Virus record (IMG/VR): IMGVR_UViG_3300027985_000627
Coordinates: 1-64,000 of that record
DNA length: 64,000 nt
Reading direction: 5' to 3' (one strand)
Origin: a virus
The position numbers and the translations under genes were made by a program. Positions within the stretch are counted from its first letter, which is position 1. Every line of letters starts with the position of its first letter. Positions 5,989 to 27,078 of this stretch are shown here, piece by piece. The notes below the pieces were generated by a model. It made no database searches. It worked only from the letters and a program-made list of their open reading frames with translations, and was not told where the DNA came from.

Positions 5989-6372
5989 ATGGGAAGCTTT
6001 TCAGAAATACTCAACGGACTCCCTTCTGACCGAGAATTGGCTGAACATGTAGAAGAAGTGGTGGACGAAACCATAAACTACGGAAATGCTGAAGGCGAAG
6101 CCAACTACGATTTCAAAGAAGAACAAGCTGAACCGTTGGTTCGTGAAATTTCGGCTATTTTGAAGAAATACGGAGTAACTGAATTCTTGTTCTTGATGCC
6201 TATCAGGAATTTTGCAACCATCAACTACTGCAAAATTACTTCTATAGCGGCGGCAAAGGTGATTAAAGTTTTCTTTTCATCCTCTCCTGAAGCAAGAGCA
6301 GTGTACGATTTGCTCAACATGCAAGCTGAGTTGAATATTGATAACAAAATAGAAATGGATCCTGACGCTTAG
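5989..6372 (+). CDS. Hypothetical protein
   Basis: Start reassigned to ATG 5989 (RBS aaggag). Confidence 0.7.
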   Translation: MGSFSEILNGLPSDRELAEHVEEVVDETINYGNAEGEANYDFKEEQAEPLVREISAILKKYGVTEFLFLMPIRNFATINYCKITSIAAAKVIKVFFSSSPEARAVYDLLNMQAELNIDNKIEMDPDA

Positions 6373-14047: not shown

Positions 14048-14419
14048 ATGTACACACCTGAAGGTTTTGAGAATGTAAAACGTATGGATCAGCATTTACC
14101 CAACTCCATCAAAATGGCAGTCTACGCTTACGACTTCAATAACTACCTCACCCTAGACGACGCCGACCTTCGCAGTGACGCAAATATGGAACCACAAAAC
14201 ATTGTTTACCGAAAATCAATGTTTGAAAAACTCTCCAATGAAGCCAAAGAGGTCATTGATATCTTCTTGAACACTCCTGCTGAAATGATTACCGTATATG
14301 GAACACCGTCTAAAGAAATGATTAAATATTTTTTTCTGAAAAAGGGATGGAAACACATAACAATCAAAAAGGCTTTCTCTGAAGTTGAAAACTATGTGAG
14401 GAACGTTTTGGAGGCGTAA
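14048..14419 (+). CDS. Hypothetical protein, weakly reminiscent of a sigma region-4/HTH C-terminus
   Basis: FEKLSNEAKEVIDIFL...KKGWKHITIKKAFSEV; function is inference only. Confidence 0.6.
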   Translation: MYTPEGFENVKRMDQHLPNSIKMAVYAYDFNNYLTLDDADLRSDANMEPQNIVYRKSMFEKLSNEAKEVIDIFLNTPAEMITVYGTPSKEMIKYFFLKKGWKHITIKKAFSEVENYVRNVLEA

Positions 14420-15774
14420 TGAAAATTCTCACACCTGATCCTCTGGTGTGCCAAATAGACTCTGACGGAAAAAAACTCCTTCAGAGTCTTTTGTCCTACC
14501 CTACCGAATATTGGATTCAAGGCAAATTCAAAAAAGAACGCAAGATCAACACCAAGTGCATGATATACGGCAGAAAGCCAAAATACTATTTCCCAGCTGG
14601 TCTTCTGCACAAAGTCACGGAGCACCTCAAAAGCAAAAATATCAAATTCACTGTAGAAGAACCGGAAACCCTTGAAAGTAGCTGGCCTCCTTCTATCGAA
14701 GGGATCACTTTCAGGGACGATCAACTCCGATCAATCAAAGCTGCCGTCGATCTTCAACGGGGAGTCTTGAAACTCCCTACTGGTACAGGCAAAACCGTTG
14801 TAGCTTCTGGCATTATATCCTGCTTTGACGGCTACAATGTTCTGTTCCTGGTTCACACAAAAAGCCTTTTGTACCAGACTGCTGACGAACTTGAGAAGTT
14901 CTTAAAAGAACCTATCGGTTTGATTGGCGACGGACACAAAAACACCAACGAACGAATTACAGTTGCAATAACCAAATCCTTTATTACAATGGACCCTGAC
15001 TTCACACTGGATACTTACGACATGGTCATCGTTGATGAGTGTCACCACGTATCCAGTTTTGATGGAATGCACGCCAAATGCTTAAACTCCATCTTAGCTC
15101 CTATGCGTATCGGTCTGACTGCTACCATGCCTGACAAAGATGCGCAGAAAGCGGCTCTTGAAGGTTTGATCGGACCTGTTATTGATACGCTGTCTTTGAA
15201 GGAGGGAAACAAGCTTGGAATACTTGCTAAACCTAAAATTCGGATAGTGAAGGTTCCTTACTCTCACAACATACGAGGCGAGAAGAAATACCCGGACGTT
15301 TATAAACGTGGAATCGTTACGTACAAAGCAAGGAACGAACTGATTGCTTCTTTGGTTCAAGAAGAAGCAAAACTTGGACACACTGTTCTTATCAACATTA
15401 CGAATCTGGAACACGGAGACTATATCTCTGACAAACTTACGGACGCTGGCATTGACCATGAATTCGTTGAAGGCATGACTGACGGACAAGCTAGAGAAGA
15501 AATCAAAAAACTTCTAAATGACGGTCATATTCAATGTGTTATCAGTTCGAAAGCTTGGAGAGAAGGTGTAAACATTCCGACTTTAAATACTGTCATCAAT
15601 GCTGCTGGTGGTAAATCTGAAATCGGAACTTTGCAATTCATTGGTCGTGGTTTGAGAAAAACTGAGGACAAGGACGTTGTAACAATCATTGATTTGTTCG
15701 ATCCATCGCACCCGTACTTAATTTCACACTTTGGAGAGCGCATATCGTTGTATTGTGAAAACGGTTGGATTTAA
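14419..15774 (+). CDS. SF2 DExH helicase (UvsW/T5 D10-like)
   Basis: LPTGTGKT, IVDECHH, GLTAT, EGVNIP, QFIGRGLR. Confidence 0.92.
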   Translation: MKILTPDPLVCQIDSDGKKLLQSLLSYPTEYWIQGKFKKERKINTKCMIYGRKPKYYFPAGLLHKVTEHLKSKNIKFTVEEPETLESSWPPSIEGITFRDDQLRSIKAAVDLQRGVLKLPTGTGKTVVASGIISCFDGYNVLFLVHTKSLLYQTADELEKFLKEPIGLIGDGHKNTNERITVAITKSFITMDPDFTLDTYDMVIVDECHHVSSFDGMHAKCLNSILAPMRIGLTATMPDKDAQKAALEGLIGPVIDTLSLKEGNKLGILAKPKIRIVKVPYSHNIRGEKKYPDVYKRGIVTYKARNELIASLVQEEAKLGHTVLINITNLEHGDYISDKLTDAGIDHEFVEGMTDGQAREEIKKLLNDGHIQCVISSKAWREGVNIPTLNTVINAAGGKSEIGTLQFIGRGLRKTEDKDVVTIIDLFDPSHPYLISHFGERISLYCENGWI

Positions 15775-15794: not shown

Positions 15795-16301
15795 ATGGAC
15801 AATTTCACCGACGCTTACCTAGGGAGGAAGACAATGGTTTGCCCTGATTGTGGGGCAAAAATGCTTCTGAAAGAATCCCGATACGGGTTGTTTTACGGTT
15901 GCCAACGCTTTCCTGAGTGTACATGCGCTCATGGAGCCCATCCAGACGGCACTCCATTAGGGAAACCAGCTAATAAAGCCACTAGATTAGCACGAAAGAA
16001 GCTCCATGAACTATTCGACCAACTGTGGAATAAAGCTGACAAAGAACTGTTTCCAGTATCTGAAATAAACGAGGGATCGAAGAAACGAATACTGTATTCA
16101 GCTAGATGGAGGGCTTATTTGTGGCTTTCAGTGTACATGGGACAGACTTTTGACGAAACACATATCGGTATGTTCACGATTGAGCAGTGCCAGAAAGCGG
16201 AGAAGATTATAGCTATCAAAAAACCTGACGCAGTAAAAATAAAGGAATGGTATAATAAAGGCGGTAGGAAGTATGCCAAAGATAATACTAGAGAAGGTTG
16301 A
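15795..16301 (+). CDS. Zinc-ribbon protein (topoisomerase zf-C4 / DUF3268-like)
   Basis: CPDCG...FYGCQRFPEC, GAHPDGTPLG, HELFDQLW, HIGMF. Confidence 0.8.
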   Translation: MDNFTDAYLGRKTMVCPDCGAKMLLKESRYGLFYGCQRFPECTCAHGAHPDGTPLGKPANKATRLARKKLHELFDQLWNKADKELFPVSEINEGSKKRILYSARWRAYLWLSVYMGQTFDETHIGMFTIEQCQKAEKIIAIKKPDAVKIKEWYNKGGRKYAKDNTREG

Positions 16302-17223
16302 CCTTTTCGGAGTATTAGAACAGCTTGACGTTCCTTATTCGGCTGGGGTCAAAAATGTTGCCCCTGGCTGGATAGGAGTTGCTTGTCCATTCTGTGGAGA
16401 TGAAACAAACCACCTTGGAATCAATATCGAAGCTAGAACTATCTCTTGTTGGAAATGCGGCACAAAAGGGACTTTGCTAAAGTTTCTCAAGGAGTTTACG
16501 GGATCGTGGGCTAGGGTGCTTGATGTAGTGCGTTTGAACTATTCTGACGCACTTTATTTCGCGTCAGAATCACGCGAGAGCGACGATACAGCGAAAAACG
16601 TACTAGATACTACAATGCCCTCTGGGATGCGCTTAGAACTCAATTCAGCCGCGTGTAAATACTTAGAATCCAGACGTTACGATCCATATTTTTTAGAAGA
16701 AAAGTACGATTTGCGATGCACAAATGGTATTTCGTACATCCGTTGGGACAAAAACGAAGTTCCATTTGACCGAAGAATCATAGTTCCAATAAAAGACAAG
16801 AACAAAATTCTCACTTACGTGGGTATAGATTACACCAGAAAGTCCAGCATGAAGTACAAAAACTGCCCTAAAGAGTGTAGTATAGAGCCAGTCAAGAACT
16901 GTTGGTACAATCTTGATTCAGTCAGAGGGACAGCTATCGTGGTTGAAGGTATCACAGACGCTTGGAGGATGGGTGATGGAGCAATAGCCTCGTTAGGAAA
17001 AATAGTCACCGAAAATCAAATAGTGAAACTCTTACAATCTGGTGTAAACAAGGTGTTTGTTTTGTTCGACTCGGATGCTGATCGTGACGCTGAAAAACTT
17101 GCTTATACTATCGGAAGTTTCATACCCACCAAGCTCGTTTTACTTGATGAAGGTGATCCGGATGACTTGTCAGATAAAGAGGCAGAAGAAATTCGCAAGG
17201 AGTTGATTTTTTCTGTTGACTAA
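16273..17223 (+). CDS. DNA primase (Zn finger + TOPRIM)
   Basis: CPFC...CWKC; VVEGITDA; FDSDA; GDPDD. Confidence 0.88.
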   Translation: MPKIILEKVDLFGVLEQLDVPYSAGVKNVAPGWIGVACPFCGDETNHLGINIEARTISCWKCGTKGTLLKFLKEFTGSWARVLDVVRLNYSDALYFASESRESDDTAKNVLDTTMPSGMRLELNSAACKYLESRRYDPYFLEEKYDLRCTNGISYIRWDKNEVPFDRRIIVPIKDKNKILTYVGIDYTRKSSMKYKNCPKECSIEPVKNCWYNLDSVRGTAIVVEGITDAWRMGDGAIASLGKIVTENQIVKLLQSGVNKVFVLFDSDADRDAEKLAYTIGSFIPTKLVLLDEGDPDDLSDKEAEEIRKELIFSVD

Positions 17224-17244
17224 TTTTTTCGGCTTATTTAGCTT
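17216..17244 (+). promoter_or_regulatory. Putative sigma70-type promoter
   Basis: TTGACT (17216-21), 17 nt, TAGCTT (17239-44). Confidence 0.65.
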
Positions 17245-17250
17245 GTCTTT

Positions 17251-17449
17251 GCTTCATCTCTCAGCCTGGTAAACTGGGAGTTACAACAAAGGTTTTTGAC
17301 TAGGTTTTTACTGGAAGGTTGTTGTATTTGAAAATTATCCACGCTGTTACAGTTTGTGGGTGAAGGTTTTAAAAGTCGGCTTACCACCGATAAAGTCCTT
17401 CCAGACAAAAACCTTTGCCTTCACCTGCAAACTGTAGCAGCGTTTTTTT
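17251..17449 (+). ncRNA. Structured leader RNA / attenuator with internal complementary segments
   Basis: 27-bp stem 17341-67/17417-43 followed by T7; three pairs of mutually complementary segments (see findings). Confidence 0.7.
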
Positions 17450-17474
17450 GCGGCTAAATTTCGAGGAGACCGAC

Positions 17475-19106
17475 ATGAATACTCCCTATACAGAACACAT
17501 CCAAGAACTGCTATATTTATATTCCGGCGAATCCCACGCACCACTCTACCGAAAATTTCTACATCACTTCAAAGATGCCAACACTGCTTTAGTTTTATCC
17601 GCCATCGTTCGCTGTATTCACTTCGACCACCAACGCCTTCAATCCGGAAAAACAGTCAATCAAATTTTTGTGGCTGACAACGGTCTTATTTTTCATAAAA
17701 TAAGCATGGATTTTTTAGCTGAATCAACAGGGTTAAACCGATCCACAGTTAAAAAAATTACGGATTTTTTAGAAGAACAAAACCTCATAGTAAAAATAAC
17801 GGGTTCGGTTCAAACAAAAAGCCGCATGGTCAAAGCTTGTTACTTTCATGTCCTGTTTAATAACCTTGAACAAGAACTTAAAAAAACACCATATCCAATT
17901 TACAGCAGAGACTTTCAACCAACAGAAGTTTTTGCCACACTCGCAAATGACATTAATAATGCGAGTAAAAAAATATCAACAAAATCAACGAATGGCTCAA
18001 ACACACCTTACGATAGCGCACGGCCTTTACTTTCGAAAAAAAACAAAGAAACCGACCCACACGAAAGGGGAGGCCTACCCCATTCGAAAGGGGACACCTC
18101 CACCATATCTTATAATAAAGAAAAAAATACCATTAAAGAAAAATCTCCTCTTTCTTCGAAAGAGTACAACTGCTCTAGCCGAGCAGTTGAGTCCAACACA
18201 GGTGAAAAATTTGGTCCATCAAGGTTGTTAAGAAAGAAAAAACCTTTGACCAAGGTGGAATCAAACTTTGAACCGAACATTGAACCTAAACCTAAAGTGG
18301 ACAGGTCAAAGTTTAAGAACATTGTTCATGGCAAGGTTTCAAATGTGAAAGTCAGTAAAAAGGTTCAAGAGTACATTGACCTTTGGAATGAACATGCAGA
18401 GTCAACCAAAGGTATGAAGGTTGTTCATGAGTTTGAACGGACTGGTCCATTCAAAGGGAAACAGCAAACCAAGAACTTCAAGGCCATTGTTTCACTTTTG
18501 AGCAAATTCATTTCGGGCGTCATGTTTCAAGGATCTGACTATTCGGAATTTGTCGATGGCGTTGATATTGAAGATTTTGAAACGGCAATCATTCGCTTGA
18601 AAGAAGCTGCATTTGATACGGACGTTAAACCTGCAAAAAAAGAATGGTTGATCGAATCGTTGAACCTCAGGACATTCTTAGAAGGATCGGATCGTGGTAT
18701 TAAATGCAAACCCTTGTTCCTTGAGTTTGGTTTGCACGACCCTGAACCGATCATTCGCATTGAATCTAGGGACGACGATCTTTCTGGGTACATCGAAGAT
18801 GTTTACGCCGAAAAAGTGTTAGGCGACTACAACAGCAATTACGAATTCACCAAAGAAGAAATAATCAAAATCAATATGGCGACGAACAAGCTCCTTGACT
18901 TCAAACGACGGTTCAAAAGGAAGCTGAAAGGAGACCCTTCGAATGAAACTATGGCTCGGCTTTTGATGGAGGCATTCTTGAACAAAAAGAAATACGATTC
19001 GGAACGGTTTCAAATGAATTTAGGGAATCTTGCTTCGAACTGGATGTTTGATACGGTCTTGCCTGAATACCTTGTTGAAATCAATTCTTCAGTTTGGAAT
19101 GACTAG
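17475..19106 (+). CDS. Putative replication initiator / helicase loader (N-terminal wHTH)
   Basis: ATG 17475 after gaggag; ISMDFLAESTGLNRSTVKKITDFLEEQNLI HTH, low-complexity linker, located between primase and DnaB-like helicase. Confidence 0.6.
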   Translation: MNTPYTEHIQELLYLYSGESHAPLYRKFLHHFKDANTALVLSAIVRCIHFDHQRLQSGKTVNQIFVADNGLIFHKISMDFLAESTGLNRSTVKKITDFLEEQNLIVKITGSVQTKSRMVKACYFHVLFNNLEQELKKTPYPIYSRDFQPTEVFATLANDINNASKKISTKSTNGSNTPYDSARPLLSKKNKETDPHERGGLPHSKGDTSTISYNKEKNTIKEKSPLSSKEYNCSSRAVESNTGEKFGPSRLLRKKKPLTKVESNFEPNIEPKPKVDRSKFKNIVHGKVSNVKVSKKVQEYIDLWNEHAESTKGMKVVHEFERTGPFKGKQQTKNFKAIVSLLSKFISGVMFQGSDYSEFVDGVDIEDFETAIIRLKEAAFDTDVKPAKKEWLIESLNLRTFLEGSDRGIKCKPLFLEFGLHDPEPIIRIESRDDDLSGYIEDVYAEKVLGDYNSNYEFTKEEIIKINMATNKLLDFKRRFKRKLKGDPSNETMARLLMEAFLNKKKYDSERFQMNLGNLASNWMFDTVLPEYLVEINSSVWND

Positions 19107-19118
19107 GAGGTTGTTTGC

Positions 19119-20750
19119 GTGGTTGCGAAAAAAAGAACCAGAGTCATTAACGTCGATACCTCGATTGAGAGGTTGATTGTTACTGGCTTCATCGTTGATA
19201 CGGATTTTTGCAGAGAACTAGCCGAAATTGTATCTCTGGAGTACTTCCAGTCGAAGTATGTAAGGCTGATTGCTCAATGGGCTTTAGAATATTACGACCG
19301 ATACGAGAAAGCATGTGGCGAGGACATTGAAAAGATTTTCCAAGCAGAGAAGCACAAGAAAGAAGTTGCCGAAGAACACCTCATTGAACGTTTCCTAGGA
19401 GACATTTCAGACGAATACGGTGCTGGTGGTTTCAATTCAAAGTACACGGTTGACCAAGCAATCAAGTATTTCAAGAAACGCGACCTGCAAATCACCATGA
19501 CCAATGTTCAGATTTACTTAGAAAAGGATGATTTGGTTTCGGCTGAAGAAGAAATCTTGAACCGAAGCAAAGTCGATCTGCCTACGTTTCAGTGGTGTAA
19601 TCCATTCGGAGAAATCGAAACAGTACACAAAGCTCTTGAAGCATCGGAGAACAAGTTCTTTGAGTTTGAAGGCGGATTGAAGAAACTTGTAGGACCCATT
19701 GACCGTGGGTTTTTTATTGGTATGCTTGCTCCGATGAAACGAGGCAAGACTTTTGAAATGCTTGACTGGGCTGTAAGTTTTGCCAACCAGAAATTGAAAG
19801 TCGCGTTCATCTCACTCGAAATGTCGGAAGAGCAGGTCAACAAACGGTTGTACAAAATGATTACCGGGTACGGCGACGAAGCTGGAAAATACCATATGCC
19901 AGTTTTCGATTGCGCGAAGAACCAAACTGGTGAATGTGTACGAACCGAGCGCGAAAATTCATATTCGCTTATCGAGAGTCAAGAAGACGAAGAAAACGAA
20001 GGAGGATCGAGGAGGACGTCAAGGAGGGGTAAGAAAAAAGACGATGAAGAGCCTAAGACAGTCACAAAAGAATACGACCCTGAAAATCCGTACAGACCTT
20101 GCACCTACTGTCGTTTCAACCATCCTAAGCTTTACACTCCGGCTTTCTACCGCGAAACTCACAAAAAGAAAAAATTGTCCGTTGACAATGTATGGCGTCG
20201 AATCAAATCCCTTGAAAAAATGATGGGCAGAGGAAATCTCCAAGTCCGTTGTTTCCCAAAGTTTTCCGCAAACGTTCGTGATCTGCAACACGAACTGAAT
20301 ATGATGGAGCATCACAAAGGTTTTTTGCCTGACGTTATTGTAGTGGACTACGCGGATATTCTTGGTCCTGAAAACGTGAAAGAAACAGGACGAGAAAGAA
20401 CGAACTCTACTTGGATGACTTTGGCGCAAATGGCTTCAACTAGAAATGCTGTGGTTGTTACTGCTTCACAGTCGAACAGACCTGGTATCAAGAAGGACAG
20501 TCTGGAAGCCGAAGATACTGCGGAAGATATACGTAAAATAGCACATGTTGATTTTATGCTGTCATTGAACCAAACCAAAGCTGAAAAAGAAGCTAACGCC
20601 ATGCGATTAGGTTTACTTGCACACCGACATAAAGAGTTTTCTGAAGACAACCAAGCGTTGGTTTTGACTATGCCTTCTCTTGGTCAGATAAATTTGGATT
20701 CGATCCTTGTTAATTGCAAAGGCGATAAATATTTTTACTTAGGAGGATAG
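19119..20750 (+). CDS. Replicative DnaB-like helicase with Cys-rich insertion
   Basis: APMKRGKT, FISLEMS, IVVDYADIL, TASQSNR, AEDIRK. Confidence 0.9.
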   Translation: MVAKKRTRVINVDTSIERLIVTGFIVDTDFCRELAEIVSLEYFQSKYVRLIAQWALEYYDRYEKACGEDIEKIFQAEKHKKEVAEEHLIERFLGDISDEYGAGGFNSKYTVDQAIKYFKKRDLQITMTNVQIYLEKDDLVSAEEEILNRSKVDLPTFQWCNPFGEIETVHKALEASENKFFEFEGGLKKLVGPIDRGFFIGMLAPMKRGKTFEMLDWAVSFANQKLKVAFISLEMSEEQVNKRLYKMITGYGDEAGKYHMPVFDCAKNQTGECVRTERENSYSLIESQEDEENEGGSRRTSRRGKKKDDEEPKTVTKEYDPENPYRPCTYCRFNHPKLYTPAFYRETHKKKKLSVDNVWRRIKSLEKMMGRGNLQVRCFPKFSANVRDLQHELNMMEHHKGFLPDVIVVDYADILGPENVKETGRERTNSTWMTLAQMASTRNAVVVTASQSNRPGIKKDSLEAEDTAEDIRKIAHVDFMLSLNQTKAEKEANAMRLGLLAHRHKEFSEDNQALVLTMPSLGQINLDSILVNCKGDKYFYLGG

Positions 20751-27051: not shown

Positions 27052-27078
27052 AGGGGAGGGTAACACCTCCCCTTTTTT
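27052..27078 (+). terminator. Intrinsic terminator
   Basis: aggggagg-gtaaca-cctcccct followed by T run. Confidence 0.8.

Follow-up and report, generated by a model that had tools for sequence, protein, structure and literature searches.

What does an uncultured phage keep in the only sizeable gap of its replication module? We addressed this question for the 251-nt interval between a DnaG-like primase gene (16273-17223) and a gene for a 543-amino acid (aa) initiator-like protein (17475-19106), which is followed by the gene of a DnaB-like replicative helicase (19119-20750). The interval lies in the window analysed here, the first 64 kb (64,000 nt) of the 87,318-bp virus record IMGVR_UViG_3300027985_000627, which is ~91% complete according to CheckV; positions are those of the window and the features described are on its + strand. 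The gap holds a leader with two hairpins and, downstream of them, a very long hairpin, the stalk, of which the top is complementary to the leader at three sites and the foot runs into a U tract. The sequence of this element, its folding and its counterparts in related phages suggested that this leader probably works as a genuine RNA switch in the expression of the replication genes. We are highly confident that the element is a functional RNA with the pairings described below, and we lean towards the reading that the pairing of leader with stalk top gates termination ahead of the initiator-like gene and DnaB.

The hairpins, complements and positions reported in the preliminary description of this locus could all be read directly in the sequence. 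Leader hairpin 1 (17258-17280) has a 7-bp stem with one G-U pair (17258-64/17274-80) and a 9-nt loop (17265-73) that contains site A, TGGTAA (17267-72). Leader hairpin 2 (17282-17326) has a weak 8-bp stem (arms 17282-89/17319-26) and encloses site C, CAAAGGTTTTTG (17287-98), and site B, CTGGAAGG (17311-18). The 5' arm of the stalk (17341-17367) forms 27 uninterrupted pairs with the 3' arm (17417-17443), and a helix search confirmed this length together with the earlier statement that all four non-Watson-Crick pairs are G-U and that a run of T follows. The stalk top, an apical domain of 49 nt (17368-17416), carries a mini-hairpin (17375-79/17387-91) with a 7-nt loop, CUUACCA, and three sites that are, as had been claimed, exact complements of the three leader sites: site A', TTACCA (17381-86), in the mini-hairpin loop matches the six nucleotides of site A; site B', CCTTCCAG (17397-404), matches the eight of site B; and site C', CAAAAACCTTTG (17406-17), matches the 12 of site C and shares its last base with the stalk. 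The B and C pairs are inverted repeats. The foot of the stalk is G+C-rich (ACGC/GCGT) and is directly followed by T7 (17443-49), the hallmark of an intrinsic terminator, in which the first T pairs with A17341 and six T remain unpaired. From the U tract to the most likely start codon of the downstream gene, ATG 17475, there are only 25 nt (17450-17474), and these include the Shine-Dalgarno sequence GAGGAG (17464-69) 5 nt 5' of the ATG (together 17464-17477). The alternative starts at 17476 and at TTG 17415 were not favoured, the GAGGAG-led ATG being preferred.

Two sets of short repeats were also noticed in this region. Words resembling AGGTT(T/G)TT are closely spaced in the leader and stalk at 17289, 17301, 17315 and 17363, and inverted in the stalk top at 17407; they could offer site C' other partners, or could be protein-binding repeats. 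The word TTTTT(T/G)(C/T)GGCT occurs three times, after the primase stop (17224-17234), after the stalk (17445-17455) and within the next gene (17665-17675), the copies being 221 and 220 nt apart.

The rarity of this arrangement was assessed within the genome and against shuffled sequence. No other uninterrupted helix on the two strands of the 87,318-bp genome is as long as the stalk (the runner-up has 20 bp), and the 12-mer CAAAGGTTTTTG and its complement are found nowhere else in it. The fold of the whole leader has a z score of -4.66, and none of 200 shuffles folded as well. When the same geometry was slid along both strands, a summed complementarity of at least 26 was reached in 11 of 6972 windows, this locus included; in a weaker test, the energy of the single duplexes was matched by 45/1000 and 27/1000 shuffles. 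A chance origin was rejected on the basis of the helix length, the slid-geometry test and the comparison of own with cross complementarity in the relatives, which is given below.

Predicted folding along the growing transcript indicated an order in which these pairings could form. In the leader alone (17251-17340), hairpins 1 and 2 constitute the minimum-energy fold, and hairpin 1 is present in the minimum-energy folds of all growing-transcript snapshots up to 17340 and again at 17417 and 17443. A transcript ending at 17417 is predicted to combine hairpin 1 with the 12-bp C:C' and 8-bp B:B' helices at -46.8 kcal/mol. The stalk dominates only from ~17435, when most of its 3' arm is out, and the predicted energy reaches -67.9 kcal/mol at 17443. 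In the full 226 nt, the stalk and the mini-hairpin are part of every fold, hairpins 1 and 2 are missing from the minimum-energy fold, and hairpin 2 is displaced by other pairings. The long-range helices and the stalk cross each other, with the stalk 5' arm inside the loop closed by C:C' and B:B' and the 3' arm outside it, and would together make a pseudoknot. Because the 5' arm lies in that loop, the long-range helices and the stalk are mutually exclusive in a nested model.

Relatives of the locus were collected through the DnaB-like helicase. With an alignment of 27 homologues, the best 80 of 467 DnaB-matched IMG/VR loci were taken as family loci (numbered with an L below). Among 52 loci with the primase upstream, many have a gap of 200-360 nt holding a very long stem with a large top; stalk pairs and top length are 29 and 47 nt in L010, 31 and 66 nt in L046, 30 and 61 nt in both L051 and L054, and 25 and 70 nt in L063. 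Under a strict rule (at least 14 uninterrupted pairs, a 30-120-nt top, a T-rich tail, at most 900 nt upstream of the gene, + strand), the stalk was found in 18 of 63 usable loci, the window included, and eight such stems occurred elsewhere in these loci in 719,181 nt. Another four (L014, L062, L063 and L083) fell short of this rule only by the tail count or the called gene start. The element is found in a minority of the loci, as several of them have no gap at all. In the relatives checked, a T-rich tail, a ribosome site and the start of a reading frame come within a few tens of bases after the stalk.

The complementarity between leader and stalk top recurs in these relatives with different sequences. 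It consists of TCCAGCCG/CGGCTGGA and AAAGCCTAAC/GTTAGGCTTT in L051, of TCCGACCG/CGGTCGGA plus a 14-mer in L063, and of a shorter and a longer complement in L083 (7-mer and 15-mer), L085 (7-mer and 14-mer), L064 (8-mer and 10-mer) and L071 (7-mer and 12-mer). The order seen in the window was present in 8 of 20 distinct elements: in the leader, a short site in or at a hairpin loop is followed by a long site, and the stalk top has the partner of the short site at a small hairpin and that of the long site toward the 3' arm. A complement of at least 9 nt between own leader and own top was detected in 13 of the 20 elements, as compared to 7 of 380 cross pairs (p 3.5e-10), and the complementarity with the own top exceeded that with the own downstream control (p 1.9e-4). 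Similarly, in pre-terminator folds own leaders formed on average 15.65 pairs with the top and swapped leaders 7.31 (p 2e-4). In each phage, the leader is complementary to the stalk top of the same element but not to the tops found in other phages.

Covariation could be followed in the alignable subgroup of L051, L054, L063, L083 and L085, which comprises five sequences, two of them nearly identical. In this alignment, 96% of the cells pair, against 86.5% in shuffles and 29-47% with slid partners, and 18 of 45 pairs have changed on both sides, against 5.5 in shuffles (0/500). All six pairs of the kissing helix can form in each of the five sequences, and three of them have changed on both sides. 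Covariation across related phages had been named in the preliminary description as a check on its proposal, and the pairings, including the kissing helix, were indeed kept through compensating changes. A comparison of L051 with L063 shows differences at 2 of 48 stalk positions and, in the three pairing sites, at 4/17, 12/19 and 7/23 positions with complementarity kept; the free linkers differ at 8 of 16.

The strand and the molecule in which the element acts were examined using the wobble pairs. Among 20 stalks, 37 positions are G-U on the + strand against two that are G-U on the minus strand only (p 1.4e-9), a count that may be biased by the choice of + strand stems. A scan of both strands gave no case in the relevant zone with a clearly longer minus-strand version, and no minus-strand promoter-like sites were listed within 17216-17477. 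The wobble bias, the U tracts and the ribosome sites together point to an element that acts as RNA of the + strand, as first proposed, and not as a double-stranded DNA site; an element of the minus strand was rejected because the wobble pairs fit the + strand. At the DNA level, the locus might be a replication origin, a set of initiator-binding repeats or a single-strand initiation hairpin next to the primase gene, and its place between the primase and initiator genes, the recurrence of the AGGTT(T/G)TT-like words and the 58-70% A+T of the leader would suit such a role. We consider it highly improbable. The wobble pairs fit the + strand only, which is unlike double-stranded protein sites although compatible with folded + strand DNA; a U tract and a ribosome site come after every stalk; and the cumulative GC skew shows no turn at the leader, for which reason an origin marked by a skew turn was rejected.

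A working model for the RNA can be proposed from these features. The stalk and U tract would form an unusually long intrinsic terminator. As the stalk lies between any leader promoter and the gene, transcription must pass this terminator to reach the replication genes. In the nascent transcript, site A' in the mini-hairpin loop would kiss the loop of hairpin 1, and leader sites B and C would be bound by B' and C' at a stage when the polymerase has yet to transcribe the 3' arm of the stalk. As long as the polymerase retains the 3' arm, the two and a half turns of the stalk helix could not wind, and the formation of the full stalk would be hindered. The C:C' and B:B' helices overlap the stalk by one base only and so, unlike classical antiterminators, tie up neither of the terminator's arms; the leader pairing would thus be an antiterminator by topology and not by hiding an arm. 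As long as the leader pairing holds, the polymerase would read through into the replication genes; where it is absent or displaced, the stalk would form and transcription would stop. A candidate for the signal that sets this balance is the released stalk RNA acting in trans. The preliminary description had proposed an RNA-only attenuator. The RNA element, its context and the conserved pairings bear this proposal out in part, and attenuation, its timing and any action in trans are what we infer from the sequence.

Several observations weigh against termination gated by leader pairing. The one-base overlap just mentioned is among them, and so is the size of the stalk, as a 27-bp stem with a 49-nt top is far outside the dimensions of measured terminators, given as stems of 7-9 bp with loops of 3-5 nt in the available part of one report (PMC10325885). 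The stalk was not listed by the terminator rule of the scan. The support from the relatives is uneven: in a test of 24 elements, which include near-identical copies, the observed complementarity total was reached by no more than 10 of 200 shuffles in only 12, those above this level being L010, L014, L046, L062, L065, L074/75, L081, L028/29, L047 and L076, and 4 of the 20 distinct elements have no leader-to-top pairs in the pre-terminator fold. The window element could not be aligned with those of L010, L062, L071 and L046 (46% mean column identity and no shared blocks); as it is not alignable by sequence with any relative, its membership in the family rests on architecture and gene context. 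The sequence matched no RNA run and two DNA runs only, one of which is labelled hydrothermal vent metagenome; either or both of these runs may be where the sequence came from. The promoter that had been described for the leader belongs here as well. The boxes TTGACT (17216-21) and TAGCTT (17239-44) with their 17-nt spacer are present and overlap the primase stop codon (17216-17244), but as a promoter they found no support, the pattern being at chance level (three matches in the window for 2.14 expected) and below the threshold of the promoter scan, by which it was not listed. Sigma-70-like boxes with at least 9 of 12 matches occur in 12 of 20 family leader windows and in 19.8% of 400 controls (p 0.0015), which is weak support because the controls, random windows of the same loci, were mostly coding and less A+T-rich. 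The promoter is therefore treated as a candidate, unproven, and the leader would also be transcribed from upstream regardless of it.

The long stem might serve an end other than gating. It could be an antitermination-resistant terminator; it could also divide the primase message from that of the initiator, as a site for RNase III or as a hairpin that protects 3' ends. In either case the pairings would merely compact the RNA. With 27 perfect pairs, the helix has the length that RNase III needs, and many long intergenic hairpins punctuate the + strand gene array of this genome. Long stems resist processive antitermination, and a stem of 15 bp is already called extraordinary in the portion of PMC10325885 consulted. 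We consider this explanation unlikely. The other intergenic hairpins of the genome have short loops, no U tract and no complementarity to a leader, and a mere insulator needs no covarying pairing with the upstream leader; furthermore, a constant stop 25 nt before essential replication genes would leave these without a visible promoter.

Control of translation was considered in the same way. Site B contains GGAAGG, and three TTG codons (17319, 17322 and 17328) lie behind it in one short frame (17313-17363), which stops at TGA 17361-63 in the stalk 5' arm; this frame could encode a leader peptide, and its translation would open the stalk. Alternative folds or this small frame might set the access of ribosomes to the initiator message, in place of termination or in addition to it, with site B as a ribosome-binding site, which it resembles, and B' as its mask, and the frame of 11-14 codons does enter the stalk arm. 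There is a precedent in the repZ initiator of plasmid ColIb-P9, which, as far as the excerpted source goes, is switched on by a leader peptide and a loop-to-downstream pseudoknot (PMC4705826). Against this, the Shine-Dalgarno sequence and ATG of the main gene are outside the stalk and unpaired in most folds, and the U tract points to termination, so that translation control appears quite improbable here.

The reading with leader pairing as the gate leaves room for a compatible feedback in trans, similar to that of P4 CI. The terminated or processed stalk RNA would be a stable small RNA that pairs with sites A, C and B on other nascent leaders and blocks their pairing in cis, thereby causing termination, and its accumulation could act as a timer, as copy-number control or in the exclusion of co-infecting relatives. 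Plasmid antisense RNAs bind their targets by a loop-loop contact that is followed by a longer single-stranded complement, and the same order is seen in the window and in 8 of the 20 distinct elements. The divergence of the pairing sites between L051 and L063, with complementarity maintained and the stalk nearly constant, is what would be expected if specificity diverges. In addition, P4 CI RNA originates by cleavage of the replication-operon leader, pairs with the upstream seqA and causes termination, according to the part of PMC4825925 at hand. On the other side, no processing signal was identified in the element, and the terminated transcript would neutralise itself unless processed, because target and antisense are on the same RNA. 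No second target cluster was found elsewhere in the genome. The unconstrained linkers of L051 and L063 diverge equally fast (8/16), so fast change of the pairing sites need not mean selection for new specificity; the divergence fits changing specificity, as in incompatibility systems, and neutral drift under a pairing constraint could also give it. We regard the feedback as possible but doubtful. With the same reserve, a bolder version may be put forward in which the hairpin of the terminator also serves as an antisense gene directed at the leader it belongs to. Each termination event would release an RNA that kisses and then zips onto nascent leaders and blocks the antiterminating self-pairing, giving a self-reinforcing, RNA-only off-switch that times replication-gene expression. 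Its phage-specific letters might bring about incompatibility or exclusion between related phages, and such switches may be widespread and uncatalogued in uncultured phages.

The genes around the element agree with its assignment to a replication module. From position 1 to ~50 kb the long reading frames are all on the + strand and closely packed, and the module consists, in this order, of a helicase-like gene (14419-15774), a zinc-finger protein, the primase, the gap, the 543-aa gene and the DnaB-like helicase. The primase has Pfam Toprim and CHC2 zinc ribbon domains and matches PHROG 47, DNA primase (E 4e-36); the helicase has the Pfam DnaB_C domain and matches PHROG 19, with 487 homologues of which the best is 40% identical. 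The 543-aa protein by itself has no Pfam or PHROG match, and a PDB sequence search with it brought no useful match (E 0.12). Twelve distant relatives were found, several with an N-terminal HTH_36 domain, and no close homologue; tblastn with this protein gave no match in any of the 80 loci. When the products of the genes immediately preceding DnaB in eight loci were combined in a profile and compared with that of the 543-aa protein and its distant relatives, the match had a probability of 100% (E 3.5e-48). The window protein can thus be placed, from comparison with the proteins that follow related stalks, as a remote member of the HTH_36-type, initiator-like genes, and "initiator" is a reasonable label for it on these sequence grounds. 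An HTH_36-type gene was found in 67 of 81 loci, the window included, several of its products having the HTH_36 domain at the N terminus, and a primase homologue lies upstream in 53 of 80. From the profile match and these counts, the order primase, gap, HTH_36-type gene and DnaB is common to distant uncultured phages, and the earlier placement of the element directly ahead of an initiator-like gene and DnaB agrees with the profile and domain evidence.

Searches beyond these loci gave few relatives. No DNA matches were obtained in GenBank phages, and none of the 273 GenBank phage records that match DnaB covers 80% of it, so a full-length relative was not present among them. The primase search led only to loci at 29-37% identity without a comparable stalk. 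Searches of viral contigs with the lone helicase, an 866-aa open reading frame, P0002 and P0004 returned nothing, and a 21-letter stalk-top pattern had no match in viral contigs. Nor did a look-up by sequence turn up any stretch resembling the window in the other scanned genomes.

Some further features of the window and of the related loci were recorded. The 5' part of the initiator-like gene contains a 28-nt direct repeat (17696-17723/17750-17777; 79% identity, 54 nt apart). Elsewhere, at 27073 and 37195, the phage has short terminators of the ordinary kind, each with a U tract. Between 1685 and 13640 of the window, the intergenic spaces of the + strand gene array hold two-part hairpins that lack U tracts; those near 6371, 7277 and 11329 have sequence in common and resemble phage sites of mRNA processing or stabilisation. 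No tRNA genes were found in the window. Beyond it, at 69001-72000 of the genome, G+C is 0.53-0.56, compared to about 0.42-0.45 elsewhere. In L051 (4097-4513) and L054 (2590-3006), a 138-aa gene with a T5orf172/MUG113 domain, homing-endonuclease-like, lies between the stalk and the HTH_36-type gene, and the DnaB relatives P0023, P0061 and P0119 are ~900 aa long and contain intein and homing-endonuclease domains (PF14528, PF14890). The 16 contigs L087-L102, which belong to this phage group, come from metagenome bins assigned to a wide range of unrelated bacterial and archaeal phyla, which is probably mis-binning and not host evidence.

Here, a clade of uncultured phages puts a giant, self-matching predicted terminator before its initiator and helicase genes. 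If the proposed mechanism is true, this would be a new attenuator design, in which pairing is with the terminator top rather than with an arm, and it would provide a natural and portable RNA part for the timing of expression as well as a marker for the start of the replication module in viral dark matter. RNA-only control of replication initiators is textbook knowledge for plasmids and the satellite phage P4, and to our knowledge it is hardly known in large virulent-type phages. In full-text searches of the literature, judged by titles and the openings of abstracts of the papers listed, no such phage leader was described, and Rfam 15 does not hold the element; the earlier impression that it is undescribed in a large lytic-type phage is thus upheld within this scope.

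The element was then compared with the four known systems closest to it. The preliminary description had likened it to the P4 CI and P1/P7 C4 RNAs (RF01695) and had pointed to the c4 and CI families of Rfam. A search of Rfam 15 at gathering score gave no match in the window or in 10 related loci, and at E up to 10 the interval 17100-17600 gave no C4 and only three chance-level matches to small nucleolar RNAs (E 2.2-4.5). Membership in C4/CI was rejected as there was no covariance-model match. A downstream target like a2b2, which lies at the icd ribosome site, or seqC was also missing, since the 170 nt downstream contain no complement longer than 6 nt and no other cluster of sites exists in the genome. 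The likeness holds for the layout, which in both cases is a stalked, same-strand RNA in the leader of the operon it controls, with exposed sequences that complement a site upstream on the same transcript. C4/CI RNA is cut from its precursor by RNase P, and in counter-transcript attenuation of the pT181/pIP501 type the antisense RNA is transcribed off the strand opposite to the leader. In the portions of the reports consulted, P4 CI RNA, through seqB and its targets seqA and seqC, is described as causing premature termination ahead of the replication genes (PMC4825925), and P1 C4 RNA as a stalked leader RNA complementary to an upstream site on the same transcript (PMC8198154). The present element differs from both in its 27-pair stalk, which is itself followed by a U tract, and in having three sites, one of them a hairpin-loop kiss, with all targets upstream.

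In ColIb-P9 (IncI-alpha), the partial source describes a similar use of an upstream hairpin loop, which pairs over a long range within the mRNA of the initiator repZ and switches its expression on, while the antisense Inc RNA kisses the same loop in competition with the pseudoknot and switches this replication initiator off (PMC4705826). There, however, the loop partner adjoins the rep ribosome site and acts on translation, and the antisense RNA is from the opposite strand, whereas in the phage leader the partners are within the top of a terminator stalk, 47-83 nt before the Shine-Dalgarno sequence. The guanidine-IV (mepA) riboswitch is alike in that a kissing loop through which a 5' hairpin contacts the terminator region was proposed to favour read-through, as stated in the accessible part of PMC11611296. 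It differs in its small-molecule ligand and short hairpins, and the phage element has additional 8- and 12-nt pairing and a 27-bp stalk and has no Rfam match. The TerR terminator of pLS20 shares with the stalk an unusually long stem followed by a U tract, and in the excerpt available it has 15 pairs and a 7-nt loop and stands at the end of an operon (PMC10325885). By comparison, the phage stalk has 27 pairs and a structured top of 49 nt, precedes essential genes and has its own leader as a pairing partner; its giant size as a gate could be explained by the resistance of long stems to processive antitermination. The complete design, a terminator with a top that is antisense to its own leader, is absent from these four systems. 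The known kind of control to which the element would belong is RNA-mediated attenuation of replication genes, and what is new is its stalked form with three pairing sites.

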